DNA of 64,000 bases from Vicinamibacterales bacterium (GCA_035537775.1 DATLLQ010000053.1:19521-83520), one strand, 5' to 3'. Positions 5,307 to 59,930 are shown, numbered from the stretch's first letter. Translations and numbers: made by a program. The notes: a model not told the origin generated them from the sequence alone.

Positions 5307-7355
5307 CTAGCTGGCCACCGACTTGGCGGCTGCTGTCAGAGGTCGGACAGGGTAATCGCCGTCGGAGTCTGGCATCGCGTCGCTGGCGGCGTCGGCGAAG
5401 GCATTGACGTATCCGATGTCCAGCGCGCGCAGGATCTCGTGAATCCGGTCCGTGTCGTCGGTGTGCGCGGCGCTCTCCAGATCGTGGAGGATGTCCGTGA
5501 AATGCGACCAGTCGTGCTTCGGGGCGCTGACGACGAAGATCTTCGAGAACGGGGTCGTGCGGACCCCCCGTTCGCCGTGGGCGATCAGTTCCTCGGTGAT
5601 CTTCTCTCCGGGGCGCAACCCCGTGAATTCGATGTCGACGTCCTGATCGGGAACGAGGCCGGACAGCTCGATGAGGTTTCGCGCCAGATCGACGATGCGC
5701 ACCGGGTCGCCCATGTCGAGCAGGAATATCTCGCCCTGGTCGCCGTGAGTGCCTGCCTGGATGACGAGCTGCGCCGCTTCGGGAATGGTCATGAAGTATC
5801 GGCTGACATCCGGATGCGTCACCGTGATCTTCCTGCCCTGCCGAATCTGCCGCTGGAAGAGCGGCACCACGCTGGCGCGGCTGCCCAGCACGTTGCCGAA
5901 ACGCACGCAGCAGAACCGCGTGGCACTGCCGCCGGCCGCACGCTGCTGCAGGATCATCTCGGCGATACGTTTCGACGCCCCCATCGTGCACGCCGGATTG
6001 ACCGCCTTGTCCGTGGAGATCAACACGAAGGTCTTCACGCCGAACGCCTCTGACAGCTCGGCGACGTGACGCGTGCCCATTACGTTGTTCAGAATCGCTT
6101 CCGCCGGATAGTCCTCCATCAACGGCACGTGCTTGTACGCCGCCGCGTGAAACACGACCTCGGGACGATGGCGCTCGAAGGCCTTGCGCAGGACGCCTGG
6201 ATTGCGGATATCGGCAACGATGGCGACGACCGCGGGGAACTCCTCCCTCGTCTCGCAGGTGATTTCGTAGAGGCTGTTCTCGTCCTTGTCGAGCAGAATC
6301 AGCTGCGCTGGGTTCAGCCGGCTCAATTGACGGACGAGCTCCGAGCCGATCGAGCCGCCGGCGCCTGTGACCAGGACGCGTCGTTCGGCGTAGGCGTCAG
6401 CCAGTCCGATGACGTCTGGGGCCGCCGTGACCGTTGTCCGGCCCAGGAGATCCTCGACGTTCACCGGCCGGAGCTGTCCGATCGCGGAGCGGTCCGCCAG
6501 GATCTCCCAGAGCGTTGGTACGGTTGACGTCTTCAATCCCAGTTGCGCACACCGCGCGGCGATGCGTTGAACCGCCCCGTGGGGCGCGCTGGGCATGCAG
6601 AAGATGACCTCGTCGATGGGCCGATGGCCGGCAATCGATTCAATCGCCAGCGTCGTGCCAAGCACCTGGCAGCCGCCAATCGTTCGACCGATCAGCTCGC
6701 GGTCGTCATCAACGAAGCCGACGATATCGAAGGCGCTCTTGCGCAGCGCGCGCAGCAGATACAGTCCCGCTTCTCCAGCGCCGGCGAGCAGCACACGCGT
6801 TCGAGCGGCCGGCGAAGAACGTGACTGGCGTACCGGCTTCGAATAGCTGTAGACGGCACGCCACGCCAGGCGGACGGCGACCATCGAGATGAATGCCAGA
6901 AACGGAAAGAGCAAGAGGACGCCAAACGGCACCGGCGTGCCGGCGAACATCCCGGGCTCGAACAATCGCCAGACCGCGGAGACGAGAAACACGAGCGCGA
7001 CCGCTCCGAGAGTGGCGAGCGCGTCCTGAACGCCGAAGTACCGCCAGACGCGCCGATACAGTCCGATCGCTCCGTTGACGGCAAGCGACAGCCCGACCGC
7101 GAACGGCAGCAGCTCGACAAACTGCCGGTCGTACGGAACCGGCATCCCGGCGTCAAATCGGAGCAGGTAGGCTGCCGCCAGCGATCCGCCGATCAGCGCA
7201 CCGTCGACGGCGACCTGCGCCGGCCGCCGGTAGGTAATCCCGTTGGCCGTCGCGTACCGGTCGACGGTACGGGCACGCGTGAGCAGATCGCGGCTCAGGA
7301 TGCCCGCGCGAAGTGTGAGAGCGACGGTCGCGCCGCGGATTTGTTGGGCCGTCAT
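5307..7355 (-). CDS. Membrane-anchored nucleotide-sugar 4,6-dehydratase (CapD/PglF/WbpM family)
   Basis: Several N-terminal TM helices are followed by VLVTGAGGSIGSELVRQL (Rossmann fold) and AAYKHVPLME (SDR catalytic region). Confidence 0.9.
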   Translation of the reverse strand: MTAQQIRGATVALTLRAGILSRDLLTRARTVDRYATANGITYRRPAQVAVDGALIGGSLAAAYLLRFDAGMPVPYDRQFVELLPFAVGLSLAVNGAIGLYRRVWRYFGVQDALATLGAVALVFLVSAVWRLFEPGMFAGTPVPFGVLLLFPFLAFISMVAVRLAWRAVYSYSKPVRQSRSSPAARTRVLLAGAGEAGLYLLRALRKSAFDIVGFVDDDRELIGRTIGGCQVLGTTLAIESIAGHRPIDEVIFCMPSAPHGAVQRIAARCAQLGLKTSTVPTLWEILADRSAIGQLRPVNVEDLLGRTTVTAAPDVIGLADAYAERRVLVTGAGGSIGSELVRQLSRLNPAQLILLDKDENSLYEITCETREEFPAVVAIVADIRNPGVLRKAFERHRPEVVFHAAAYKHVPLMEDYPAEAILNNVMGTRHVAELSEAFGVKTFVLISTDKAVNPACTMGASKRIAEMILQQRAAGGSATRFCCVRFGNVLGSRASVVPLFQRQIRQGRKITVTHPDVSRYFMTIPEAAQLVIQAGTHGDQGEIFLLDMGDPVRIVDLARNLIELSGLVPDQDVDIEFTGLRPGEKITEELIAHGERGVRTTPFSKIFVVSAPKHDWSHFTDILHDLESAAHTDDTDRIHEILRALDIGYVNAFADAASDAMPDSDGDYPVRPLTAAAKSVAS

Positions 7356-48056: not shown

Positions 48057-48081
48057 GGCACCCCTAAAGGGGTGCCCTACG
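48057..48081 (+). repeat. REP-type element GGCACCCC-TAAA-GGGGTGCC-CTACG
   Basis: Read directly in the korA/korB spacer. It is followed by a partial unit, AGGGCGCCCTACG, at 48085-48097. Confidence 0.8.
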
Positions 48082-48092
48082 TAAAGGGCGCC

Positions 48093-49889
48093 CTACGCTG
48101 CTTTATCCAGTCTGGCCTTGACGCCTGAAATCACGTGCTGCGCGCTCATCGGGAAGCCGCCGTAGTACCGCACCGACTCCATCTTGTCGATCGACAGGCC
48201 CGTCTCGAGCTGGAGCAGACTGCGCAGCTGCGCGTCGCGGTTCTGCTCGACGACGAACGTGAGGTCGTGCGATTCGATGAACTTCGCCACGTCGTCCCCG
48301 AAGGGGAAGCTGCGGACGCGCATGTAGTCGAGCGCGATGCCTTCTTTCGCCAGCAGGTCCAGCGCCTCGATGCACGCGGCATGGCAGCCGCCGACGGTCA
48401 ATATGGCCAGCTTCGTGCCCGGAGTCTGGCGGATGATCGGCGCCGGCAGCGATTTCGTGGCGCGCTGAATCTTCCGGTCGATGCGGTCGACGACCTCGAG
48501 GTATTCCTCGGCGTCCTCCGTATAGCCGCCGTACTTGTTGTGGCCGGAGCCTCTCGTGAAGAACGCGCCCCTCGGGTGCGTGCCGGGCAGCGTGCGATAC
48601 GGGATCCCGTCGCCGTCCACGTCGAGGTAGCGATAGAAGTTCTTCGCCTTCTCGAGCTGCTCCGCTGTGAGCACCTTGCCGCGATCGGGCTTGCGGCTGT
48701 CGTCCCACACCAGCTTCGGCACCATCCAGTCGTTCATCCCGATGTCGAGATCGGTCAGCACGAACACCGGCGTCTGGAACCGCTCGGCATAGTCGAATGC
48801 CTTCGAGGCCAGCTCGAACGCCTCTCGCGGATCCGACGGATAGAGACAGATGTGCCGCGTGTCGCCGTGCGACGCATAGGCGGCCATCATTAGGTCGCCC
48901 TGCTGCGTGCGGGTCGGCATGCCGGTTGACGGTCCGGTGCGCTGCACGTCGAAAATCACCGCCGGGACTTCGCCGTAGTAGGCAAGGCCGATGAACTCGT
49001 TCATCAGCGAGATGCCGGGACCCGAGGTGGATGTGAAGGCGCGGGCGCCGGCCCAGCCGGCGCCGATCACCATGCCGACGGCGGCGAGCTCGTCTTCCGC
49101 CTGGAGGATCGCGAAGCGATTCTTCTTGGTCTCGGGATCCTGGCGGTACTTCATGCAGAAGCCGCGGAAGGCGTCCATCAACGAGGTCGACGGCGTGATC
49201 GGATACCAGGCGGCAACGGTCGCGCCGGCGTAGAGACAGCCGAGCGCTGCCGACGTATTGCCGTCGATGAGGATCGCGTCCTTGGTCTTGTCGAGCGGCT
49301 CGAGGTGGATCGGCAGCGGGCAGGACAGGTTCTTCAGCGCGTACTGATACCCGAGGTCCACCGCCTTCTGGTTGGAGTCCATCAGCGCCTGCTTCTTGCC
49401 GAACTTCTCCTTCAGCAGCGCGCGGATGACGTCCTGGTCGATCTTCATCAGCGCCGCGAGCGCGCCGACATACGCGATGTTCTTCATGAGGATGCGCTCG
49501 CGCACGCCCTTGAAGCTCGCGTTGCACATCTCCGCCAGCGGCACGCCCAGGTAGGTGACGTCCGGCCGCTTCAGGCGATCGTCGAGTGGCCACGACGAGT
49601 CATACAGCAGCCATCCGCCGCCTCGCACCTCGGCCACGTCCTTGTCGTAGGTCGCGGCGTTCAGCGCCACCATCAGATCGAAGTCCGGCGTGCGGGCGGT
49701 GTAGCCGTCCTTGTTGACCCGGATCTCGTACCAGGTGGGCAGCCCCTGGATGTTCGACGGGAAGACGTTCTTGCCAGTGACCGGCACACCCATCCGGAAG
49801 ATGGCCTGCATCAGGAGACTGTTGGCCGATGCGGACCCGGTTCCGTTGGCAGTGGCGATCTTGAAGGCGAAGTCGTTAACTCGGCTCAT
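48093..49889 (-). CDS. korA: 2-oxoacid:ferredoxin oxidoreductase alpha subunit
   Basis: A 598-aa protein with the N-terminus FKIATANGTGSASANSLLMQAIF and the domain order typical of KorA. Confidence 0.9.
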   Translation of the reverse strand: MSRVNDFAFKIATANGTGSASANSLLMQAIFRMGVPVTGKNVFPSNIQGLPTWYEIRVNKDGYTARTPDFDLMVALNAATYDKDVAEVRGGGWLLYDSSWPLDDRLKRPDVTYLGVPLAEMCNASFKGVRERILMKNIAYVGALAALMKIDQDVIRALLKEKFGKKQALMDSNQKAVDLGYQYALKNLSCPLPIHLEPLDKTKDAILIDGNTSAALGCLYAGATVAAWYPITPSTSLMDAFRGFCMKYRQDPETKKNRFAILQAEDELAAVGMVIGAGWAGARAFTSTSGPGISLMNEFIGLAYYGEVPAVIFDVQRTGPSTGMPTRTQQGDLMMAAYASHGDTRHICLYPSDPREAFELASKAFDYAERFQTPVFVLTDLDIGMNDWMVPKLVWDDSRKPDRGKVLTAEQLEKAKNFYRYLDVDGDGIPYRTLPGTHPRGAFFTRGSGHNKYGGYTEDAEEYLEVVDRIDRKIQRATKSLPAPIIRQTPGTKLAILTVGGCHAACIEALDLLAKEGIALDYMRVRSFPFGDDVAKFIESHDLTFVVEQNRDAQLRSLLQLETGLSIDKMESVRYYGGFPMSAQHVISGVKARLDKAA

Positions 49890-49937
49890 CTACTCTCTGG
49901 ACGCTCGTCTCGGAGCTCCTCGCGGTGAACATCCCGG

Positions 49938-51728
49938 TTACACCGCCACAGTCGCCGGCACGACCGAATCCGCGTGCGGTATCAGCACCGCAAACTTCCG
50001 CATGTCCCACGCATAGGTCGGGCACCGCTCGGCACAGAGGCCGCAGTGCAGGCAGATGTTTTCGTCCTTCACCATGATGCGCCCGGTCTGCTTCAGCCCG
50101 CCAGATGCGAACAGCGGCTGTTCCGTATTCAGCGCCGGCGTTTTGACGTTGCTCCGCAACTCGTTCTCGTCTGCGTTGGGAATGATCGCCAGGCAGTCAA
50201 CGGGACAGATATCGATGCACGCATCGCACTCGATGCAGAGCGAGTCGGTGAAGTGCGTCTCTACGTCGCAGTTGAGGCAGCGTTCGACCTCATGCGCGGT
50301 CTGCTCGGCCGTGAAGCCAAGCTCAACTTCGGTATTGAGGCTCTTGAACCGCGTCACCAGATCGACGTGCGTCATCTTCTGGCGTGCGACGGGGTCGTAG
50401 TTGTTGCTGTACGACCACTCGTGCAGCCCCATCTTCGTGCTCGTCAGCGTCATGCCCGGCGAGGGGCGCTCGGTGACGGGAATGTCCTGACAGTAGTTGT
50501 GGATCGAGATGGCCGCCTGGTGGCCGTGCTCGACGGCCCAGATGATGTTCTGCGGGCCGAACGCGGCGTCGCCGCCGAAGAACACGCCCGGACGCGTGGA
50601 CATGAACGTCGTCTTATCCACGACCGGCATGTCCCACTTGCCGAACTCCAGGCCCATGTTGCGCTCGATGAACGGAAACGCGTTGTCCTGCCCGATCGCC
50701 AGCACAACTGTGTCGCACGGGATGATCTCGCGACCGATCGTCTCCTGCTGGAGCTTCCCGTCCACCTCGACCGACTTGAACTTGTCGAACTCCATGCCCG
50801 TCAGCTTCCCGTTCTCGACGATGAAGCGGATCGGCTGGAGGTTCTCGACGATCTCGACGTTCTCTTCTTCGGCGTCTTCCAGCTCCCACGGTGACGCCTT
50901 GAAGTACTTCCGCGTCTTGCGAGCGATGACCTTGACGTCGGTGGCGCCGAGCCGCTTGGCCGAGCGGCAGCAGTCCATCGCGGTGTTGCCGACGCCGATG
51001 ATCAGCACGCGCTTGCCGACAGACTCGATGTGGCCGAAGTGCACCGACTCGAGCCATTCGATGCCGATGAAGATCTGATCCGTGTCGTGCCGGCCCGGGA
51101 TCTCGAGCTCCTTGCCCTTCGGCGCCCCGCTGCCGACGAACACCGCGTCGTACTCCTTGGAATCGAGAAGCCCCTTCAGGCTCTCGACAGGCGTGTTGTA
51201 GCGGACGTCAACGCCCATGTCGACGATGTAGCCGATCTCTTCGTCGAGGACCTGCTCGGGGAGGCGGAAGGCGGGGATGTTGATCCGCATGAGGCCGCCG
51301 GGCTTCGACAGCTTCTCAAATACGGTGACCTGGTAACCAAGCGGCATCAGGTCGTTGGCTACCGTCAGCGACGCCGGACCCGCGCCGATCAGCGCGACCT
51401 TCTTCCCGTTCTTCTTCGCCGGGGCCGTCGGCAGCAGGTGTTTGACCTCGTCGCGATGGTCGGCGGCCACGCGTTTGAGGCGGCAGATCGCCACTGGCTT
51501 CCCGTCCACGCGCGTGCGCCGGCAGGCAGGTTCACAGGGCCGATCGCACGTACGGCCAAGAATTCCTGGGAAAACGTTCGATTCGCGATTGAGGAGGTAG
51601 GCGTCGGTGAATCGTCCCTGGGCTATCAGCCGGATGTATTCCGGCACGTTGGTATGCGCCGGACACGCCCATTGGCAATCGACGACACGGTGGTAGTACG
51701 TCGGATTCCCGACATCCGTTGGATTCAT
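49938..51728 (-). CDS. GltD-like FAD/NAD(P)H oxidoreductase fused to a C-terminal 2x[4Fe-4S] ferredoxin domain
   Basis: From ORF 49938..51887, with the start moved to MNPTDVGNPTYYHRV (ATG 51726-51728). Motifs include an N-terminal Fe-S Cys cluster (CDRPCEPAC), VALIGAGPASL, and C-terminal CLNCD...CIECDACIDICP and CLHCGLCAERCP. Confidence 0.85.
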   Translation of the reverse strand: MNPTDVGNPTYYHRVVDCQWACPAHTNVPEYIRLIAQGRFTDAYLLNRESNVFPGILGRTCDRPCEPACRRTRVDGKPVAICRLKRVAADHRDEVKHLLPTAPAKKNGKKVALIGAGPASLTVANDLMPLGYQVTVFEKLSKPGGLMRINIPAFRLPEQVLDEEIGYIVDMGVDVRYNTPVESLKGLLDSKEYDAVFVGSGAPKGKELEIPGRHDTDQIFIGIEWLESVHFGHIESVGKRVLIIGVGNTAMDCCRSAKRLGATDVKVIARKTRKYFKASPWELEDAEEENVEIVENLQPIRFIVENGKLTGMEFDKFKSVEVDGKLQQETIGREIIPCDTVVLAIGQDNAFPFIERNMGLEFGKWDMPVVDKTTFMSTRPGVFFGGDAAFGPQNIIWAVEHGHQAAISIHNYCQDIPVTERPSPGMTLTSTKMGLHEWSYSNNYDPVARQKMTHVDLVTRFKSLNTEVELGFTAEQTAHEVERCLNCDVETHFTDSLCIECDACIDICPVDCLAIIPNADENELRSNVKTPALNTEQPLFASGGLKQTGRIMVKDENICLHCGLCAERCPTYAWDMRKFAVLIPHADSVVPATVAV

Positions 51729-51741
51729 GCGGTAGAGCTTA

Positions 51742-51747
51742 ATTATA
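51742..51747 (-). promoter_or_regulatory. Consensus -10 hexamer TATAAT 13 nt upstream of the ATG
   Basis: The minus strand reads cccTATAATtaagctctaccgcATG. No SD lies between the hexamer and the ATG. Confidence 0.4.
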
Positions 51748-51856
51748 GGGCACGGTGCCGAAATGCGCGGCTTTCGCGCGAGAACACAAAGATATACGGT
51801 GCGTCGGGGGATTCCGCTTACGCACGATGTGCGCCATCGTGATGGCTGCTTCCGTA

Positions 51857-51894
51857 CAAGAAAAGGGCGCGAAGAACAGTTGTTCATCGCGCCC
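51857..51894 (-). terminator. Rho-independent terminator downstream of sodA
   Basis: The minus strand reads GGGCGCGATGAACAACTGTTCTTCGCGCCC followed by TTTTCTTGT. The stem is long and almost perfect. Confidence 0.7.
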
Positions 51895-51905
51895 GCGTCT
51901 GTGAT

Positions 51906-51929
51906 GTCCGGCTAAAGCCGGACGCTACG
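51906..51929 (+). repeat. REP-type element GTCCGGC-TAAA-GCCGGAC-GCTACG
   Basis: Read directly, 9 nt after the sodA stop. Confidence 0.8.
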
Positions 51930-51937
51930 AATGCCGG

Positions 51938-52534
51938 TTACAGGGCCTTGTTGACCTCGGCCCAGTTGACGACGTTCCACCACGCGCCGATGTAGTCGGG
52001 GCGGCGGTTCTGATACTTCAAGTAGTAGGCGTGCTCCCAGACGTCGAGGCCGAGAACCGCCTTCTTCCCATCCATCAGCGGGTTGTCCTGATTCGGCGTG
52101 CTGGCGATCGACAGCTTTCCACCGTCGTTGAGCAGCCACACCCACCCGCTGCCGAAGCGTCCGGCGCCGGCCTTCGCCCACTCTTCCTTGAACTTGTCGA
52201 AGCTGCCGAACGCCGCATTGATCCCGTCGGCAACCTTTCCGGTTGGCGCGCCGCCGGCATTCGGCGCCATCCACTTCCAGAACATGCTGTGGTTCCAGTG
52301 CCCGCCGCCGTTGTTGCGTACCGCGGTGCGGATGGCTTCCGGAATGCTGTTGATGCTCTTGCAGAGATCCTCGACCGTCTTGCCCTGCAGGTCGGGATGG
52401 TTCTGCAATGCGTTGTTCAAATTGGTGACATACGTCTGATGATGCTTCCCGTGATGAATCTGCATCGTCTGCGCGTCGATGTGCGGTTCGAGCGCGGCGT
52501 GGTCATACGGGAGCGGGGGAAGTTCGTGCGCCAT
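51938..52534 (-). CDS. sodA: Superoxide dismutase, Mn-type by sequence signature
   Basis: From ORF 51938..52591, with the start moved to [17 protein letters not shown] (ATG 52532-52534) after GGAGGA. The motifs [26 protein letters not shown] and DVWEHAYY are present. Confidence 0.95.
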
Positions 52535-52547
52535 TCGTCCTCCGAAG

Positions 52548-52569
52548 GAGCGGATCGTCGGATCCGCTC
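52548..52569 (-). promoter_or_regulatory. Perfect 9-bp stem hairpin in the sodA leader
   Basis: The sequence GAGCGGATC-cgac-GATCCGCTC lies immediately upstream of the SD. Its role is unknown. Confidence 0.3.
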
Positions 52570-52627
52570 GAACCGGACGATGGTACTTCACACCACGAAC
52601 TGGCGCGAATAAACGGAAGAGATAGCG

Positions 52628-53089
52628 TCAGTCCTGAAGCTTCAGGTGCATGAAGACGCTGAACCCGTTGTCCTGGTAGGAACCGAAGCGTCCGCACTCC
52701 TGAAAGCCGACGCTGCGATACAGCGTCTGCGCCGGCGCGAATGCCGGGTGATTGCCGGTTTCGAGGAACAGCTCACGATATCCGCGCTGACGGGACACCT
52801 GAAGGAGGTGATTGAGCAGCGCTCTTCCTGTCCCCTGCCGGCGAAGGCGCGCCGGTGTCCGCATCGACTTCACTTCGCCCTGGGATGGCGACAGCTCCTT
52901 CAGGGCCGCGCAACCGAGTAAGGCCCCGTCTTCCCATGCGGTCCAGAGAGTGACGTCTGGCGCCCGTAACTTGCTCGCGTCGAAAGCGAAGACGCATTCG
53001 GGCGGCGACAGCTCGTGCATGTTCCTGAGATGCTCCTCGAGCAACGCGAGCACCTCAGCTCTGGATACATCGTCGAGCTCGATCCGCAT
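52628..53089 (-). CDS. GNAT-family N-acetyltransferase
   Basis: From ORF 52628..53245, with the start moved to MRIELDDVSRAEV (ATG 53087-53089). The acetyl-CoA loop is RLRRQGTGRALLNHLL. Confidence 0.8.
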   Translation of the reverse strand: MRIELDDVSRAEVLALLEEHLRNMHELSPPECVFAFDASKLRAPDVTLWTAWEDGALLGCAALKELSPSQGEVKSMRTPARLRRQGTGRALLNHLLQVSRQRGYRELFLETGNHPAFAPAQTLYRSVGFQECGRFGSYQDNGFSVFMHLKLQD

Positions 53090-53105
53090 GCGGAGTAAGG
53101 TCCGT

Positions 53106-53597
53106 CTACCAGGGACCGGTGTGAGTCTTGATCGCTCCGGACAGCAGCGCCTTGCGAACGTCCTCAATCGTCTTGAAGCCGCCAGGTGCGGCACCGCCCC
53201 ACTCGAATTGAGTCGCATCGGGCGTCCAGCGAAAGAGCAGCACATGCCATGTGGATGTACCGCCGCCGCGCTCGTAATACACCAGGCAATGGAAATCGTT
53301 CGAGCACCCGGCTGCGATCATCCGGCGGCTCGGGAGCTGTCGATTGACCGCCACGCCGGCCTTCTGAAAATCGGCTCCCGGCTCGGCGATGTCGAGCGTG
53401 CCGCCGAACATCGGCATCAGCCGATCGCGCACCCCAAGTGGCAGGCCCCGGATCGACGTGATGATGTCGAAGCGTTCGTTCTGCAGGTGAGTGCGCAAAG
53501 CCGGGGCCAGCGGGCCTGAGGCCGTCTGGCCCGTAGCAACGACGGCCGGCAAAAGGCTGACGGCGAGCGCGATGAGGAGTCGTGTGCGCATGCGCAT
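53106..53597 (-). CDS. Secreted hypothetical protein
   Basis: From ORF 53106..54227, with the start moved to MRMRTRLLIALAVSLLPAVVATG (ATG 53595-53597). A signal peptide is present. Confidence 0.6.
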   Translation of the reverse strand: MRMRTRLLIALAVSLLPAVVATGQTASGPLAPALRTHLQNERFDIITSIRGLPLGVRDRLMPMFGGTLDIAEPGADFQKAGVAVNRQLPSRRMIAAGCSNDFHCLVYYERGGGTSTWHVLLFRWTPDATQFEWGGAAPGGFKTIEDVRKALLSGAIKTHTGPW

Positions 53598-53603
53598 GTT
53601 TTT

Positions 53604-53628
53604 GGTCCGGCTGAAGCCGGACGCTACG
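53604..53628 (+). repeat. REP-type element GGTCCGGC-TGAA-GCCGGAC-GCTACG overlapping the nadA stop codon
   Basis: Read directly. The CTA of the tail (53624-53626) is the reverse complement of the nadA TAG stop. Confidence 0.8.
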
Positions 53629-54760
53629 TAATAGACAGCATCCGATCGAGCGCGACCTTGTTCCAGTGCTTCTGTTCGTCGGAAACGACGATGCGATTGG
53701 GAACGCGGCCTTCGACCAGTTCCTCGAGAATCCAGAGCAGGTGGTTCGGCGACACGCGGAACATCGTCGAGCACAGGCAGCCGAACTGGTCGAGCGAGAC
53801 GACGGTCTTGTCCGGCGCCACTTCGTGCGCTAGCCGGTTGACCAGGTGCACCTCGGTGCCGACGGCCCATACCGAACCCGGAGCGCTCTCGCGAACGGTC
53901 TTCAGGATGTACTCGGTGCTCCCGTTGTCGTCGGAGGCCTGAACGACATCCCACGGCACCTCGGGATGGACAATGACGCGGATCCCCGGGTGCTGCTTCC
54001 GGACGGCCTCGATCTGCTTCGCGGTGAAACGCTCGTGCACGGAGCAGTGGCCCTTCCAGAGGATCATCTTCGCGCGCTTGACGTCTTCGGGATCGAGGCC
54101 GCCGAACATCTCGTTGGGATCCCACACGACCATCTGATCGAGCGGCACTCCCAGCTTGTAGGCGGTGTTGCGCCCGAGGTGCTGGTCGGGCATGAAGAGA
54201 ATCCGCTCTCCGCGCTCGAATCCCCACTTGATCGTGGCCGCCGCGTTTGACGACGTGCAGACGGTGCCGCCGCGTTCGCCGACGAACGACTTAATCGACG
54301 CGGCCGAGTTGATGTAGGTCACCGGCACGATGCCGGGGATGCCCATCTGCTGCAGCTCTTCCCAGCACGTCTCGAGCTGATCGGGATCGACCATGTCGGC
54401 CATCGAGCAGCCTGCGGCAAGGTCCGGCAGGATCACCTGCTGATGCGGCGCGGAGAGAATGTCCGCGCTCTCGGCCATGAAGTGGACGCCGCAGAACACG
54501 ATGTAGTCGGCGTCGGGATGCTTCGCGACCTGGCGTGCGAGGCGGAACGAATCGCCGGTGTAGTCGGCGAACTTGATCACCTCGTCGCGCTGATAGTGAT
54601 GGCCGAGAATGACGAGCCGCTTGCCGAGCGTCGCGCGAGCCGCGGCAATGCGGGCGTCCATCTCCACGTCAGACAGGCCGAGGTACTTCTCGGGGAGCGC
54701 CTGACGCTCGGAGATGTGGTCCTTCTCGAACTCGGTCAGCAGCGGAATGATTGAGCCCAT
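53624..54760 (-). CDS. nadA: Quinolinate synthase NadA
   Basis: The whole 378-aa sequence is characteristic of NadA, including VILGHHYQRDEV, VHFMAESADIL, ILWKGHCSVHERF and VGTEVHLVNRL. Confidence 0.95.
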   Translation of the reverse strand: MGSIIPLLTEFEKDHISERQALPEKYLGLSDVEMDARIAAARATLGKRLVILGHHYQRDEVIKFADYTGDSFRLARQVAKHPDADYIVFCGVHFMAESADILSAPHQQVILPDLAAGCSMADMVDPDQLETCWEELQQMGIPGIVPVTYINSAASIKSFVGERGGTVCTSSNAAATIKWGFERGERILFMPDQHLGRNTAYKLGVPLDQMVVWDPNEMFGGLDPEDVKRAKMILWKGHCSVHERFTAKQIEAVRKQHPGIRVIVHPEVPWDVVQASDDNGSTEYILKTVRESAPGSVWAVGTEVHLVNRLAHEVAPDKTVVSLDQFGCLCSTMFRVSPNHLLWILEELVEGRVPNRIVVSDEQKHWNKVALDRMLSIT

Positions 54761-54885
54761 CGGCAGCCTGCACTCCGGTCACGTCCGTGTGACATTGTGA
54801 AACTTTTCGCAATCTCCGGACGTGAAAAAGCCCAAACCCCTCAGCCGGCTATTGCCCCGTGGGATTTGGACTGTCTGAATTATAA
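54761..54885 (-). promoter_or_regulatory. Structured nadA leader: -10 TTATAAT, a terminator-like hairpin with a U5 run, then a long hairpin abutting the SD
   Basis: The minus strand reads cgTTATAATtc...CCAAAUCCC-acggggcaauagccggcuga-GGGGUUUGG-GCUUUUU-CACGUCCG...CGGACGUG-accGGAGugcaggcugccgAUG. Confidence 0.5.
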
Positions 54886-54926
54886 CGTTTGGCGGCGGCG
54901 GACGATAGCCGGGGCGGTTGCCCGCC

Positions 54927-55610
54927 CTAAAATGGCGTGAAACTCAGGCGAATATCACCCAGGCAGACAGCGGAGTCGGTGGCAGGTAGTCCATTCCCCC
55001 ACCAGAGACCCCCGCTCCCTGTGGCCTCGATTTTTCCATTCTGGGCCACCGCATTGGCGTTGCCTCCAATCTCGAGTAAGCGGTCTTCCTGGGTCAACAC
55101 CTCCCAGATTTGGGCGCCCCTCCGATCGTCATCATTCGACATGGTCACGGAGAGTGTTGATCCACCGGCAGGCGTCATGAGGAACTGATTACAGATGCCG
55201 GTCCCCGGCAACCGGAGATCGGCACAGCCGATGCCGTTTCCCGGACTGATATCCGCGAGGAACGTGGCCTCGTAGAGCCGGACCACATAACCGTTTCCGT
55301 GATTGAGGACGTCCGCAGAGTACGTCCGACGTTTCGCATGCGCCGGTACAGTCTCGCATCGCTCAGCCGCGGCAGGCTCGATGACGACATCAAGCGCATA
55401 GCGCCCGACGAGCGGATCAGCCGATGGCGGCGGCGGTGCAGGCAACGGCACAAAGATCCGGTTCAGCGCTGAGACTGGCGTCCCCGTCGGCGGAGGGCTC
55501 GGAGCCGGAATCGGCGTCGTCACCGTGGGAGCAGCCGGAGTCGAGGAACTCCCGCATCCCAGCACCAACAGCAAGAGGGTCCCGACGAGTGTCCGTGGGG
55601 GTCGACACAT
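54927..55610 (-). CDS. Lipoprotein, hypothetical
   Basis: The signal/lipobox LLLLVLGC is followed by a Pro/Thr-rich linker and a domain with four Cys. Confidence 0.6.
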   Translation of the reverse strand: MCRPPRTLVGTLLLLVLGCGSSSTPAAPTVTTPIPAPSPPPTGTPVSALNRIFVPLPAPPPPSADPLVGRYALDVVIEPAAAERCETVPAHAKRRTYSADVLNHGNGYVVRLYEATFLADISPGNGIGCADLRLPGTGICNQFLMTPAGGSTLSVTMSNDDDRRGAQIWEVLTQEDRLLEIGGNANAVAQNGKIEATGSGGLWWGNGLPATDSAVCLGDIRLSFTPF

Positions 55611-55703
55611 CCCTGGGCTCCTTTCGACAACACGAGGGGCTAAGGGGAATCGGACGACCGGGGCTTCACGCCGCCTGGCAGTGAAGGGGAACCTACGAAC
55701 GCG

Positions 55704-56831
55704 TCAGGCGTGCAGTGTCGCGGGCTCGGAAACCTGGGGAACGTTGACGATGTTGTAAAACGTATCGCGCTCGAGCGGCTCACGGCCGGCAGCGCGGACG
55801 AGGCGTGTCAGTGCCGTGGTGGTCATTCCCTCGGGCGTCGGGGAACCAGCCATGTGGTAAATCTTCTCTTCCTGCACGGTCCCGTCGAGATCGTCGACGC
55901 CAAACCATAGCGACGTCTGCGCCACCTCCAGCCCGGTCGCAATCCAGAACGCCTTGATGTGCGGAATGTTGTCGAGCATCAGCCGCGATACGGCGTGGAC
56001 GCGCAGCGAGTCGGTTCCGCTCGGCGCCGGCAGCTTGCGCATCTGGTTGTTGTCGGGATGGAACGCCAGAGGGATGAACGCCTGGAAGCCGCCGGTCTCG
56101 TCCTGCAGCGCGCGCGAGCGCAGCATGTGATCGACACGCTCCTCCATCGTCTCGATATGCCCGTAGAGCATTGTGACGTTGGTCTTGAGCCCCAGTTGAT
56201 GGGCGAGCCGGTGAATGGAGAGATATCTATCGGCGTCTGCCTTGTCGTGGCAGATCTTGCGGCGCACGCGCTCGGCGAAGATCTCGGCGCCGCCGCCGGG
56301 CAGCGAGTCGAGGCCGGCATCGATCAGCTCGCGCAGCACCTGCTCGTCGGTCATCCCGTACAAATCTGAGAAGTACGCGATCTCAACAGCCGTGAAGCAC
56401 TTGAGATGAATGCCGGGACGGATCCGTTTGAAGCCGCGCAGAAGATCCGTGTAGTAGCTGAACGGCAAGTGCGGGTTCAGGCCGTTGACGATGTGCAGCT
56501 CGGTCAGCGGCTGATTCGCACGCCGTCGAAGCTTGTCCCACGCCTCTTCGAGCGACATCGTGTAGGCCTCGGGCATCCCGGCCTGCAGCCGCGAAAAAGA
56601 GCAGAACAGACAGGTCGCCTCGCAGACGTTTGTCGGCTCGAGGCGGAGGTTGTAGTTGAAGTAGGTGCGCGCGCCGTGGCGCTTCTCGCGCTCGCGGTTC
56701 GCGAGCCAGCCGACGGCGAGGAGGTCGGGCGCGTCGAACAGGCGCACGCCATCCTCGAGCGTGAGCCGTTCTCCAGCCTGCAGCTTCTCGTCGATTGCGG
56801 CCAATCCGGCCGCCTGAAGGCGCGATTTCAT
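55704..56831 (-). CDS. Radical SAM enzyme of the futalosine menaquinone pathway (MqnE/MqnC family)
   Basis: The motif EPTNVCEATCLFCSF (CxxxCxxC) is present, with CofH/Mqn-like length and layout. mqnD and mqnB lie in the same window. The start is taken as ATG 56829-56831, because the ORF-track start at 56876 is a TTG. Confidence 0.8.
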   Translation of the reverse strand: MKSRLQAAGLAAIDEKLQAGERLTLEDGVRLFDAPDLLAVGWLANREREKRHGARTYFNYNLRLEPTNVCEATCLFCSFSRLQAGMPEAYTMSLEEAWDKLRRRANQPLTELHIVNGLNPHLPFSYYTDLLRGFKRIRPGIHLKCFTAVEIAYFSDLYGMTDEQVLRELIDAGLDSLPGGGAEIFAERVRRKICHDKADADRYLSIHRLAHQLGLKTNVTMLYGHIETMEERVDHMLRSRALQDETGGFQAFIPLAFHPDNNQMRKLPAPSGTDSLRVHAVSRLMLDNIPHIKAFWIATGLEVAQTSLWFGVDDLDGTVQEEKIYHMAGSPTPEGMTTTALTRLVRAAGREPLERDTFYNIVNVPQVSEPATLHA

Positions 56832-56980
56832 GTGAAAAAGAAACCGGGTTTGATTTTCCAGCCCAAACAGGGACAATCAAACCCGGCTTCAATTGTAGCC
56901 GGGTGAACAGGGAAGTGGGTGCGAAGCCCACGCGGTCCCGCCACTGTAAGCGGAGAGATTCGGTCGCACGTCACTGCGGT

Positions 56981-57005
56981 GGCACTCCTGAAGGGGTGCT
57001 CTACG
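56981..57005 (+). repeat. REP-type element GGCACTCC-TGAA-GGGGTGCT-CTACG
   Basis: Read directly. It lies inside the riboswitch variable region. Confidence 0.75.
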
Positions 57006-57011
57006 AGATTT

Positions 57012-57036
57012 CGTAGGACGCGCCTTCAGGCGCGTC
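57012..57036 (-). repeat. REP-type element, inverted: CGTAG-GACGCGCC-TTCA-GGCGCGTC
   Basis: Read directly. With the element at 56981-57005 it forms a tail-to-tail doublet around the palindrome CTACGAgattTCGTAG. Confidence 0.75.
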
Positions 57037-57133
57037 ACGCGGGAAGACAACCCGAATCGGCAAAGACTCCGTGAGCCAGGAGACCTCTCATCCGGCGTCG
57101 TCCAGCTCTCGGCGCGAAGGACGCCGCACGGAC

Positions 57134-57979
57134 ATGACGCTCTCCGCCACACAGCTCTCGTACAGCTATCGCCAGGGTCCGGCTAAAGCCGGACGCTACG
57201 CCAGAAAAACAGGTCCGGCTGAAGCCGGACATTACGCCGGGGACTTCGCGCTGCGCGACATCAGCGTCAGCGTCGCGCCCGGTTCGCTGACAGGCCTCCT
57301 CGGGCCGAACGGCTGCGGCAAGACGACGCTGCTGAAGCTGCTCTCCGGCGTCCTCAAGCCGGAGCTCGGCTCCGTTCGACTTGGCGAACGCGAGATGCGC
57401 CTGCTCTCCGCGCGGGCCGTCGCACAGCAGATCGCGGTGGTCCCCCAGGAAACGCATCCGGCGTTCGACTTCACGGTCATGGAGATGGTGCTGATGGGAC
57501 GCCATCCGCATCTCGGCGCGTTTCAGCTCGAGGGACCCAGTGATCTTGCGATCGCCCGCGAGTCGCTGATCGCTACGGGCACCGCCCACCTTGCGGGCCG
57601 CGCCTACATGACGCTGAGCGGCGGCGAAAAGCAGCGCGTCGTCATTGCCAGCGCGCTGGCGCAGAAGCCAAAGGTTCTCCTGCTCGACGAGCCGACCGCC
57701 TCGCTCGACCTCGGCTATCAGCTCGAAATCGCAGCGCTCCTCAAACAGCTCAATCGGGAACGCGGTGTGACGATGGTGCTGGCGACGCATGATCTGAACC
57801 TGGCGGCGTCCGTGTGCGACACGCTCGTGCTCGTGCGCGAAGGCCGGGTGCTGATGCAGGGGCCGACGAACGATGTCCTGACGTCCGCCACCGTCCAGCA
57901 GCTCTACGGCGTGATCGCCGACGTCACATTCCACGAGCGCGCGGGACACATGACGGTCATCCCCGTCCGCCGGCAATGA
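57134..57979 (+). CDS. btuD: Corrinoid/iron-complex ABC transporter ATP-binding protein (BtuD/FecE family)
   Basis: From ORF 57071..57979, with the start moved to MTLSATQLSYSY (ATG 57134), because the GTG at 57071 lies inside the B12 box. The motifs GPNGCGKTTLLK and LSGGEKQRV...LLLDEPTASLD are present. Confidence 0.85.
   Translation: MTLSATQLSYSYRQGPAKAGRYARKTGPAEAGHYAGDFALRDISVSVAPGSLTGLLGPNGCGKTTLLKLLSGVLKPELGSVRLGEREMRLLSARAVAQQIAVVPQETHPAFDFTVMEMVLMGRHPHLGAFQLEGPSDLAIARESLIATGTAHLAGRAYMTLSGGEKQRVVIASALAQKPKVLLLDEPTASLDLGYQLEIAALLKQLNRERGVTMVLATHDLNLAASVCDTLVLVREGRVLMQGPTNDVLTSATVQQLYGVIADVTFHERAGHMTVIPVRRQ
57176..57200 (+). repeat. REP-type element GGTCCGGC-TAAA-GCCGGAC-GCTACG inside btuD codons 15-23
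   Basis: Read directly. It translates in frame as GPAKAGRYA. Confidence 0.8.
57212..57236 (+). repeat. REP-type element GGTCCGGC-TGAA-GCCGGAC-ATTACG inside btuD codons 27-35
   Basis: Read directly. It translates in frame as GPAEAGHYA. Confidence 0.8.
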
Positions 57980-59040
57980 GCGACGCGATCAGCGACGCCA
58001 TGAGGGACACTGTCGCTCTGGACAACGTCGCGGCCGTCCGGCCGATCAGGGCGCGTCTTGTCGCCACCGTCGCGGGATTCGGCGCCGTGACAGTGGCCGT
58101 CTGTCTCCTTGCGCCGCTCGTCGGCAGCACGCAGATCAGCCTGACGCGCGTCTTCGATCGGTCGATCCCGTTCGCCAACAACGTCGACGCACAGATCTTC
58201 TTCATCGCCCGGCTGCCACGAGTGCTCTCGGGAGCGCTGGTCGGCGCGGCCCTGGCCGCGGCGGGCGTTGTCTTCCAGGCACTTCTGCGCAATCCACTCG
58301 CCACGCCGTTCACGTTGGGTGTCTCGGCGGGGGCGTCGCTGGGCGCAATGCTGGTGATCATCCTCGGCGTGAACATCGCCGCCGGCTCACTCCCGGCGGT
58401 GCCTCTCGCCAGCCTGGCCGGAGCATCGATCGCGACCGCAATCGTCTACTGGCTGGCGACGCCTTACCGGCGCGCGATGTCGACGTCGGTGCTGCTGCTC
58501 GCGGGGGTGACGCTCAATTCGTTCTTCTCGGCGCTCATCATGTTCGTGCAGTACATCGCCGACTTCTCGCAGGCCTATCGCGCTGCGCGCTACCTGATGG
58601 GCGACCTGGACATCGGCAGCTTCGATCCGCTGGTGGCCGCGCTCCCGCTGGTGACCGTCGCGTTCGTTGCGTTTGCGACGCTGCCCTCCGCCCTCAACAT
58701 GCTGAGCCTCGGGCCGGATGCCGCGGCAACCCGCGGTGTTGACGTGGTCCGTGCGCAGCGGCTCGCCTTCTTCAGTGCCTCGCTCGCAACGAGCGCGGCG
58801 GTGTCACTGGCGGGGCCGATCGGCTTCGTTGGGATCGTGGTGCCGCACCTTGTCCGGTTGATGGTGGGCGTCGATCACCGCATCGTGCTGCCGGCGTCAA
58901 CCTTGTTCGGCGCGGCATTCCTCGTCGTGTGCGACCTGGCCGCGCGAACCCTGCTCGCGCCGATCGAAATCCCCGTGGGCGTCGTCACCGCAATTATCGG
59001 AGGGCCGTTCTTCCTATGGCTGCTCGTACGAAGAAGCTGA
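57976..59040 (+). CDS. btuC: FecCD-family ABC permease (BtuC-like)
   Basis: From ORF 57814..59040, with the start moved to ATG 57976 (ATGA overlap with the btuD stop). It has about 9-10 TM helices and the C-terminal motif GVVTAIIGGPFFLWLL. Confidence 0.9.
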   Translation: MSDAISDAMRDTVALDNVAAVRPIRARLVATVAGFGAVTVAVCLLAPLVGSTQISLTRVFDRSIPFANNVDAQIFFIARLPRVLSGALVGAALAAAGVVFQALLRNPLATPFTLGVSAGASLGAMLVIILGVNIAAGSLPAVPLASLAGASIATAIVYWLATPYRRAMSTSVLLLAGVTLNSFFSALIMFVQYIADFSQAYRAARYLMGDLDIGSFDPLVAALPLVTVAFVAFATLPSALNMLSLGPDAAATRGVDVVRAQRLAFFSASLATSAAVSLAGPIGFVGIVVPHLVRLMVGVDHRIVLPASTLFGAAFLVVCDLAARTLLAPIEIPVGVVTAIIGGPFFLWLLVRRS

Positions 59041-59930
59041 TCGCGGCTATCGCGGTTCTGATCGCGTGTGCGATCAGCGTGAGCGCTCTCCAGGTCCGCC
59101 TGAAGGCGGACACTACGACCGCGCAACGTGGGGTCGGCGCGAATGCCCGCATCGTGTCGCTCGTGCCGGCGCTCACCGAGATGTTCTTCGCCATCGGTGC
59201 TGGTCCGCAGGTTGTCGGCATCGGCAACTTCGATAACTTCCCTCCAGAGGTCAAGACGCTGCCGCGCGTCGGAGCGCTGCTCAACCCCGACACGGAGCGC
59301 ATCCTCGCTCTTCGTCCGACTCTGGTCGCCACCTACGGCTCGCAGACCGATCTCAACGAGCAGTTCGCGCGCGCTGGCATCAAGACGTTCGTGTACCGGC
59401 ACGGCGGCATCAGCACCATCTTCCAGACGATGCGCGATCTTGGCGATGCGACGGGTCATCGGGCGCAGGCCGATCGAGTGGTGCGCGACCTTCAGGCACG
59501 TCTCGACGCTGTGCGCACCAGAGTGAAGGGACTGCAGAAGCCGCGCGTCCTGCTCGTCATCGGACGCCAGCCGAAGGCGCTGCGCGAGATCTACGTGAGC
59601 GGCGGCCAGGGATTCCTGCACGAGATGCTCGAGATCGCCGGGGGCCAGAACGTCTTTGCCGATGTATTGCGTGAGTCGGTCCAGCCGTCGCAGGAGACTC
59701 TCATTGCCCGCAAACCGGACATCGTGATCGAAACGCACGCGGAGGGGATGTTCCAGACCTCCGACGTCAGCGGCGAGCAGGCGGTCTGGTCGGCTTTGTC
59801 CTCGCTGCCCGCGGTCCGCAATCGCCGGGTCCACGTCTTGATCGGCCAGTACCTTGTCGTGCCCGGGCCTCGGTTCGCGCAGGCGACCGAAACCCTCGCG
59901 CGAACCATTCACCCCGAAGCGTTCAAGTGA
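59016..59930 (+). CDS. btuF: Periplasmic corrinoid/siderophore-binding protein (BtuF-like), probable lipoprotein
   Basis: From ORF 58929..59930, with the start moved to MAARTKKLIAAIAVLIACA (ATG 59016). The motifs RIVSLVPALTEMFFAIG and NPDTERILALRPTLV are present. Confidence 0.85.
   Translation: MAARTKKLIAAIAVLIACAISVSALQVRLKADTTTAQRGVGANARIVSLVPALTEMFFAIGAGPQVVGIGNFDNFPPEVKTLPRVGALLNPDTERILALRPTLVATYGSQTDLNEQFARAGIKTFVYRHGGISTIFQTMRDLGDATGHRAQADRVVRDLQARLDAVRTRVKGLQKPRVLLVIGRQPKALREIYVSGGQGFLHEMLEIAGGQNVFADVLRESVQPSQETLIARKPDIVIETHAEGMFQTSDVSGEQAVWSALSSLPAVRNRRVHVLIGQYLVVPGPRFAQATETLARTIHPEAFK
59093..59117 (+). repeat. REP-type element GGTCCGCC-TGAA-GGCGGAC-ACTACG inside btuF
   Basis: Read directly. 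It translates in frame as (Q)VRLKADTT, just after the signal peptide/lipobox. Confidence 0.8.

Follow-up and report, generated by a model that had tools for sequence, protein, structure and literature searches.

Among bacterial REPs (short for repetitive extragenic palindromes), those with a GTAG tag were surveyed by Di Nocera, De Gregorio and Rocco (2013, BMC Genomics 14:522), who found them mostly in intergenic DNA and a minority wholly inside open reading frames (ORFs) (PMC3733652). Opitutus, Thauera and Xanthomonas are among the bacteria with in-frame GTAG and CGTC REPs. Of the intragenic inserts reported, over half are dimers or groups encoding 20-30 residues, which were argued to lie in flexible loops, and different REPs occupy about the same recB site in two Xanthomonas species (PMC3733652). 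The Rickettsia palindromic elements (RPEs; Ogata et al. 2000, Science 290:347) are presented, as cited in PMC3733652 and PMC3184786, as in-frame selfish palindromes in genes that remain functional and whose products tolerate the inserted peptides; their length is about 105-146 bp (PMC3184786), and they are restricted to Rickettsia. For REP doublets forming hairpins (REPINs) and the REP-associated tyrosine transposases (RAYTs), the work of Bertels and Rainey and of Park et al. (2021) describes long maintenance of REPs within a lineage, with local amplification and deletion attributed to the replication machinery (PMC8049555). Here we describe two GTAG-type REPs that lie in frame close to the start codon of the gene for an ATP-binding cassette (ABC) importer ATPase of a Vicinamibacterales bacterium (GCA_035537775.1, DATLLQ010000053.1:19521-83520; this whole stretch of 64,000 nt is called the window below), at a codon position which is a REP hot spot across the clade.

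The ATPase gene (57134..57979; features given with window coordinates lie on the plus strand unless stated otherwise) encodes a protein of 281 amino acids similar to FhuC, HmuV and BtuD, the nucleotide-binding domains of type II importers. Codons 1-14 (MTLSATQLSYSYRQ, 57134..57175) specify strand beta-1, which ends in the probable A-loop residue Y12, and strand beta-2 together with Walker A (DFALRDISVSV...GPNGCGKT, residues 37-64) is encoded at 57242..57325. Between them stand two direct repeats of 27 nt, 89% identical and 36 nt apart from start to start, at 57176-57202 (GGTCCGGCTAAAGCCGGACGCTACGCC) and 57212-57238 (GGTCCGGCTGAAGCCGGACATTACGCC). Each forms a hairpin with a perfect GC stem of 7 bp and a loop of 4 nt, after which comes (C/T)TACG. 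In unit 1 the hairpin covers 57177-57194, with loop TAAA and tail GCTACGCC, and the unit is translated as GPAKAGRYA; in unit 2 it covers 57213-57230, with loop TGAA and tail ATTACGCC, and the translation is GPAEAGHYA. The spacer AGAAAAACA (57203..57211) is read as RKT, its length being 9-11 nt according to where the unit boundaries are drawn. Compared with shuffled controls, RNA folding gave -16.9 kcal/mol (z -3.2) for the first hairpin and -13.8 kcal/mol (z -3.8) for the second. The CCAG that follows both CTACG tails was considered as a target signature and set aside as possibly coincidental. The segment of about 61 nt adds about 22 residues (GPAKAGRYARKTGPAEAGHYAG), and the ORF 57071..57979, read from ATG 57134, translates as MTLSATQLSYSYRQ-GPAKAGRYARKTGPAEAGHYAG-DFALRDISVSVAPGSLTGLLGPNGCGKTT. 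The initial annotation had placed two REP units in frame between the first strand and the second strand with Walker A; repeats, reading frame and translation all reproduce its text, and its coordinates are right.

The units are GTAG-type REPs in the accepted sense, as had been proposed, which is apparent from their intergenic copies and from the GTAG tag on the minus strand. With a length of 25-27 nt and stem-loops of -13.8 to -16.9 kcal/mol they have the size and shape of REPs, and the tag (CTACG on the plus strand) is present in seven of the eight window copies, unit 2 having TTAC. The pattern GTCCGGCTNAAGCCGGAC, with up to 3 mismatches, matched 11 times in the window against 0.32 expected from shuffles, and a wider scan yielded eight units of the form stem-CTRAAG-stem-N-CTACG, all within 48-59 kb; at least six copies occur in the 20.8 kb of the related locus L124 (loci and proteins used for comparison carry L and P numbers). 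A 24-nt stretch of unit 1, GTCCGGCTAAAGCCGGACGCTACG, is identical in the intergenic copy at 51906, and the hairpin of unit 2 is identical to that of the copy at 53605. Because identical hairpins stand in intergenic DNA (51906-51928, 53605-53628), the sequence represents a dispersed repeat family and not a protein motif. Both ATPase units and a copy in the gene for the BtuF-like binding protein, btuF, lie inside reading frames and so lack the extragenic location that gave REPs their name; since intragenic members of such families are documented, this does not exclude family membership. The ATPase pair is a direct repeat, unlike the inverted doublet with one long hairpin that defines a REPIN, and units of 25-27 nt in a Vicinamibacterales host resemble the RPEs, of about 105-146 bp in Rickettsia, in behaviour only.

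Di Nocera et al. caution that many N-terminal 'intragenic' REPs stem from misannotated start codons (PMC3733652), and one could suppose that here, too, a wrongly placed start has put REPs of the 5' untranslated region into the gene, or that the assembly is at fault. Both suppositions are extremely improbable. The DNA evidence comes from 20 metagenome loci found by an N-terminal DNA pattern that was blind to the insert, together with L124 and L125. The path from ATG to Walker A is open and in frame in all 20 metagenome orthologues and in L124 and L125, and frame and openness are kept in 23/23 DNA-level orthologues. No in-frame ATG, GTG or TTG occurs between the REPs and Walker A. Strand 1 is needed for the ABC fold and is conserved, residues M1, L3, A5, S9, Y10 and Y12 being at least 90% conserved in a homology-selected alignment; the third codon positions of this strand vary, and serine codon 11 alternates between AGC and TCC. 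For the metagenome loci this codon test is partly circular, as the search pattern fixed codon positions 1 and 2, and the protein-level conservation of strand 1 is therefore taken from the homology-selected set. Directly 5' of the start codon, a leader block (CGGCGCGAAGGACGCCGCACGGAC, 57110..57133) is near-invariant in 21 orthologous loci and still recognisable in the distant L001, L003 and L004. Conservation of the leader and of the ATG context extends to all orthologues. With leader and strand-1 residues conserved, third positions varying and no alternative in-frame start available, the start codon ATG 57134 is secure as far as sequence comparison goes, and translation must begin upstream of the repeats, as the initial annotation also held. 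Because the required strand lies upstream of the insert, the objection of a misannotated start does not apply. The identical 281-aa protein emerged from independent assemblies of ENA and JGI data, and an assembly artefact is thus effectively excluded. The ATPase core gave ratios of nonsynonymous to synonymous substitution (dN/dS) of 0.06 against L124 and 0.03 against L125 and is, by this measure, under strong purifying selection; to call the transporter subunit essential, as the initial annotation did, was an overstatement.

An AlphaFold2 model based on an alignment of 50 sequences (mean predicted local distance difference test score, pLDDT, 84.7) has a strand at residues 3-11 (block pLDDT 93) and another at residues 39-47, which runs to Walker A with pLDDT >90; over residues 16-35 pLDDT is <50. 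The insert is thus predicted to be a disordered surface loop between confidently modelled strands, an arrangement for which modelling had been suggested as a check. In Foldseek the predicted fold matched HmuV (4g1u) with template-modelling (TM) scores of 0.87-0.89, and also BhuV, HI1470, FhuC and BtuD. The initial annotation further gave homologues only a short turn at this position, and this is borne out: the alignment of the orthologue P0091, whose loop is empty, with HmuV 4g1u begins at residue 4 and needs no indel, whereas the window protein aligns to solved relatives such as FhuC only from about residue 36. In ABC ATPases the aromatic residue that ends strand 1 is the A-loop residue, which stacks on the adenine. 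We take Y12 to be this tyrosine from its place in the ABC fold, and the insert would then probably follow the A-loop directly.

A protein search returned 120 relatives with 69-100% identity, the single match with a named source being a Vicinamibacterales protein. In the 95 closer relatives, all Vicinamibacterales orthologues, the segment between SYSY and EFALRD was counted as the loop; the shortest has 2 residues, the longest 46 and the median is 22, and recognisable REP-derived peptides are present in 72/95. Units of the GPAKAGHY type occur in 21 loops, of the VRLKPDTT type in 32, of the GRPEGRPL type in 7 and of the SALRRT or SAFARRATADK type in 11, while one further protein joins the last type with a GPAKAGHY unit. 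The loop strings of 22 proteins are unclassified, several being visibly decayed units, and P0091 alone has an empty two-residue turn. A loop may hold from 0 to 4 copies of the two main unit types. Among 20 more distant relatives the loop is mostly 2-5 residues long and P0114 alone bears a unit, which is its own. Four related genome loci from Vicinamibacterales or Acidobacteria subdivision 6 assemblies, with 62-72% identity, are REP-free; they came from a genome scan that was swamped by a generic Walker A pattern. The insert types are intermixed among closely related cores in a neighbour-joining tree of the ATPase core. The idea of an indel unique to this lineage did not survive the orthologue alignment, which reveals a clade-wide REP hot spot instead.

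The DNA of the orthologous loci shows that GPAKAGHY and VRLKPDTT come from one REP, which has two open frames. The remaining frame, interrupted by TGA or TAA in the loop, was never observed in orthologues. At this site the units always have the same orientation, and the first one starts 40-45 nt after the ATG. Other palindromic families are found at the same position, with stems GGCCGACC and CTTCCGCC, plus a longer element, which in other cases is nested within a loop of one of the first three REP types. The latter (peptides SALRRT, SAFARRATADK, SAVASAKAE) was seen in L093, L110 and L109 and in proteins P0037, P0053, P0093 and P0041, alone or exactly in the loop of three different REP types, and in three reading frames, which suggests that REP loops are themselves targets of insertion. 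Partial-unit duplications and hairpin-free relics also occur among the orthologous loops. The loops of L092, L102, L112, L119 and of a group with the peptide PPSRSGHTSQ are decayed and free of hairpins; judged from these sequences and from the empty loop of P0091, REPs are not required at the site.

These data bear on a function of the inserted peptide itself, for instance as a flexible lid or regulatory loop beside the nucleotide site. Its position after the probable A-loop tyrosine would suit such a role, and nearly all members of the crown clade keep an extended loop, with the median length given above. The frames and families, however, give unrelated peptides (GPAKAGHY, VRLKPDTT, GRPEGRPL, SALRRT), which makes a protein-level role unlikely; the loop length varies over the full range of 2-46 residues, the segment is predicted to be disordered, and solved homologues work with a short turn. 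Altogether we rate this explanation as very unlikely. That the same DNA is read as GPAKAGHY in some orthologues and as VRLKPDTT in others argues for a passenger peptide.

Between 12 lineages, intact first units show an average difference of 9.5%, compared with 44% at fourfold-degenerate sites of the same genes, and the units carry genome-specific signatures. In the window, the copies at 51907, 53606 and 57178 all share GGTCCGGC..GGACGCTACG; in L124, AATCCGGC..GGACTCCAC is common to four copies, of which one lies at the nadA 3' end, one upstream of nadA and one each in the ATPase and HscA genes. From the low divergence and these signatures it follows that the units are live members of the REP population of each genome. 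In the L124 copies at 5615, 6784, 10045 and 20637, GTGGAG (CTCCAC on the plus strand) replaces the GTAG tag, which hints at a shifted recognition sequence common to all copies. The relative L125 has a single unit with a compensatory stem change and lacks exactly one 36-nt unit, that is, the spacer and unit 2.

Such a pattern could also be approached by a single ancient insertion whose later evolution was confined to the site, through slippage, point mutations and compensating indels, so that there would be no true hot spot. The constant orientation is in line with this, as is the usual order of doublets, in which, whichever of the two frames is used, an AAA-loop unit precedes a GAA-loop unit. 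REPs do persist at orthologous intergenic sites, such as the nadA 3' end in the window and in L124, and repeat periods of 11 residues in the arrays of P0010, P0071 and P0076, which point to local tandem duplication at the sequence level, and 18-nt partial repeats in L118 are changes of the kind expected in place. A switch between the two open frames, however, would need two simultaneous compensating indels, since the third frame has a stop codon, and as changes are needed on both sides, recurrent insertion or replacement is the more economical account. At least four unrelated stem families occupy the site, the distant orthologue P0114 has a unit of its own, neutral decay at 44% fourfold divergence would erase an ancient copy, and the genome-specific signatures show replacement or conversion. 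A history of in-place evolution alone is accordingly improbable to our mind.

The leader of the operon provides a second site. A cobalamin riboswitch aptamer (RF00174, 83.4 bits, E 4.5e-19) occupies 56864..57106 and ends 28 nt before the ATPase ATG; it precedes the ATPase in the orthologous loci that reach far enough. Its variable peripheral loop contains a convergent REP doublet (hairpin-CTAC ... GTAG-hairpin, 56979..57038, not assigned to a strand) within an insertion of 57 nt relative to the Rfam model. The inverted arms, 56979-57006 and 57011-57038, fold as a single extended hairpin of -40.3 kcal/mol (z -5.8), which corresponds to the inverted doublet of a REPIN. REP doublets or singlets are found at the equivalent riboswitch position, between -160 and -97 from the ATPase ATG, in L085, L092, L093, L098, L102, L109, L110 and L125, and are absent there in L083, L097 and L124. 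The stem families of the doublet differ between close relatives, being GACGCGCC in the window and GGGCCGAC in L125. REPs have a second hot spot in this peripheral loop. The riboswitch of the same operon in L124 (9845-9973) has 129 nt and scores 58.6 bits, compared with 243 nt in the window; it lacks the entire internal extension that bears the REP doublet in the window. Pairing of the REPs in the coding sequence with those of the riboswitch was considered and dropped, as the stems differ. Of the perfect REP hairpins in 154 kb of orthologous DNA, the loop codons contain 17, riboswitch and leader 13, and all other parts 9, so that REPs are concentrated about 100-fold at the loop and the riboswitch loop relative to flanking DNA.

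This concentration is one of several observations that would fit hairpins under selection as part of the B12 transporter leader, in the form of an RNA or DNA element such as a barrier to exonuclease or Rho on riboswitch-terminated or untranslated transcripts or a dock for a REP-binding protein, with the coding frame merely accommodating them. The units are far more conserved than fourfold sites, their orientation and the distance of the first unit from the ATG are constant, and hairpins of -14 to -17 kcal/mol are stable. Three of the four in-frame REP sites seen lie less than 100 nt from a start codon (ATPase +43, btuF +78, L124 HscA +62), and in other bacteria REPs are reported to act on mRNA half-life and termination (cited in PMC8049555). 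Against this, L092, L102, L112, L119 and the PPSRSGHTSQ group have kept gene and riboswitch although they are hairpin-free, one loop is empty, and copy number, family and spacing vary freely. The REPs of the riboswitch loop and those of the coding sequence occur independently of each other, and in the predicted leader fold the REPs take no part in the pairing of the start-codon region. The family-wide loop and CTACG tail and the genome signatures common to unrelated sites fit a REP population better than a local element. We therefore hold selection for such an element to be unlikely, and the regulatory link between REPs and riboswitch at which the initial annotation hinted has found no support so far. 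A variant, in which the loop codons and the riboswitch loop would be maintained REP docking sites within the regulatory leader of the B12 importer, appears quite doubtful. Should it apply, the hairpins or a REP-binding protein such as a RAYT would tune transcript fate or translation downstream of the riboswitch, and evolution would have fitted the coding sequence to accept a nucleic-acid element in either open frame, a case of REPs domesticated inside a gene and not passively tolerated.

We favour, with a probability of roughly 0.7, the explanation that a permissive surface loop carries the REPs as translated passengers, their site forming a REP nest that renews itself. Translation would start at ATG 57134 and run through both hairpins, and the extra residues, about 22, would form a disordered, solvent-exposed loop that leaves the ATPase fold undisturbed. 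Selection would remove only inserts that break the frame, bring in a stop codon or disturb folding. At an occupied site, units would be duplicated in tandem or deleted locally, other REP copies would supply new ones through re-insertion or gene conversion, and REP loops would receive nested insertions; such renewal would account for orthologues that bear 0-4 units, in two frames and from several families. The insert would be neutral, and the renewal route may be a RAYT transposase, replication slippage or gene conversion.

Several points weigh against this explanation. The read-through of the REPs by ribosomes in this uncultured lineage is deduced from sequence conservation. The comparison of first units took intact units only and thus has an ascertainment bias, and conservation of the units above neutral sites could also result from selection in place. 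The roughly 100-fold concentration of REPs exceeds what simple tolerance would give, and neither a target motif nor a target-site duplication could be made out convincingly at the empty basal sites (L127, L128) or at the junctions. No RAYT gene, which would be present in a single copy per genome, turned up in the roughly 230 kb of the window and 26 related loci, where E. coli RayT as tblastn query gave a best E value of 0.29.

Next to the ATPase comes a BtuC/FecCD-type permease (57976..59040; E 2e-68 with BtuC models, below cut-off), its ATG and the ATPase stop codon overlapping as ATGA, and then a BtuF-like periplasmic binding protein (59016..59930; BtuF model E 1e-28, below cut-off). The operon thus has the FecCD-type permease and class III (Peripla_BP_2) binding protein of a type II importer, and the order of the three genes is identical in L124. 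The ATPase has the expected motifs, which are invariant: Walker A GPNGCGKT (57-64), the Q-loop with Q105, the signature LSGGE (161-165), Walker B LLLDE (182-186) and the H-switch H219; the invariant alignment columns from strand beta-2 to Walker A are F38, G57, N59, G60, G62, K63 and T64. Its best PDB sequence matches are FhuC 7lb8 (E 5e-49) and HmuV 4g1u. In NCBIfam it scores best with models for corrinoid, heme, FecE and FhuC ATPases but reaches no equivalog cut-off; the BtuD equivalog model (NF002981) gave 124.3 bits with a cut-off of 281. As none of these cut-offs is reached, the assignment of B12 as substrate follows from the riboswitch only.

The eight window REP units span 48058-59117, in the last 16 kb, and seven of them have the same orientation whatever the direction of the genes; GC skew, being flat across the window, gave no means of tying the REP orientation to the direction of replication. 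An intergenic REP of the same superfamily lies at 48058..48080 (stem GGCACCCC), and the copy at 51906..51928 is intergenic, downstream of a superoxide dismutase gene. The copy at 53605..53628 lies at the 3' end of nadA, where CTA (53624-53626) is the nadA stop codon TAG of the minus strand, so that this stop comes from the GTAG tag of the REP. In L124 the REP is 6 nt further away from the TGA stop that its nadA has of its own, and the C-terminus of NadA is Q instead of T. The spacer sequence AAAAACA of the ATPase (57203-57209) is the reverse complement of TGTTTTT (53598-53604), which flanks the copy at 53605, a correspondence that is possibly coincidental. The in-frame REP of btuF (59093..59117; stem variant GTCCGCC/GGCGGAC, -14.3 kcal/mol) lies in the linker after the signal peptide and is read in the other open frame as (Q)VRLKADTT, and the BtuF orthologue of L124 has a differing linker without a REP. 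An HscA/HSP70-like gene of L124 (18786-20699, minus strand) contains two in-frame REP inserts, namely NPAEAGLHT in the turn of the first beta-hairpin (residues 21-29) and a convergent doublet read as GRPEGRPLRAGVEADLQVGL (residues ~252-272). With btuF in the window and HscA twice in L124, in-frame REPs seem common in this clade, and the initial annotation's argument that REPs are extragenic by definition, and the insert for that reason unusual, loses its force beside the documented intragenic GTAG REPs (PMC3733652) and Rickettsia RPEs. A query of 30 REP-peptide residues against a library clustered at 50% identity had only 7 matches, mostly spurious ORFs over REP arrays, and provides no measure of frequency.

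What is new at this locus is an N-terminal REP translation that is not explained away, a hot spot that is clade-wide, multi-frame and multi-family, and an adjacent hot spot in the riboswitch loop. As a natural example of selfish palindromic DNA that is most likely translated it is unusually clean, and it offers a data set on the renewal of REPs at a fixed site, on insertion-tolerant loops and on hairpins early in a coding sequence in relation to riboswitch control. For annotation, the insert explains why profile models lose the first strand of the ATPase, and GPAKAGHY and VRLKPDTT in Vicinamibacterales proteins should be recognised as repeat DNA rather than protein motifs.

The REP insert of the ATPase belongs to a documented type, since in-frame palindromic repeats are already established. 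With the GTAG REPs of Di Nocera et al. it shares the short GC hairpins with GTAG tag and the dimeric arrangement in an ORF, which encodes 20-30 residues. It differs in lying downstream of a conserved and structurally required strand, and in occupying one codon position clade-wide, with 0-4 units, two frames, at least four families and nesting. Furthermore, the array in the ATPase is a direct tandem, whereas the head-to-head dimer predominates in the survey, and the host order Vicinamibacterales (Acidobacteriota) is outside the REP families which that survey covered. Like the RPEs of Rickettsia, the units are palindromic repeats in frame in genes that are still functional; the RPEs are not 25-nt GTAG hairpins, however, and PMC3733652 and PMC3184786 describe for them no multi-frame hot spot that spans a clade. 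Both the tandem arrays and the signatures particular to each genome fit the lineage-maintained REP populations of the REPIN/RAYT systems, but REPINs are inverted doublets and the ATPase pair is direct, only the pair in the riboswitch loop being REPIN-like. On the protein side, the ATPase resembles HmuV, BhuV, FhuC and BtuD (4g1u, 5b57, 7lb8, 4fi3) in fold (TM 0.8-0.89), motifs and operon composition. Where those proteins have a turn of a few residues, the enzyme described here has 25 residues between Y12 and F38.

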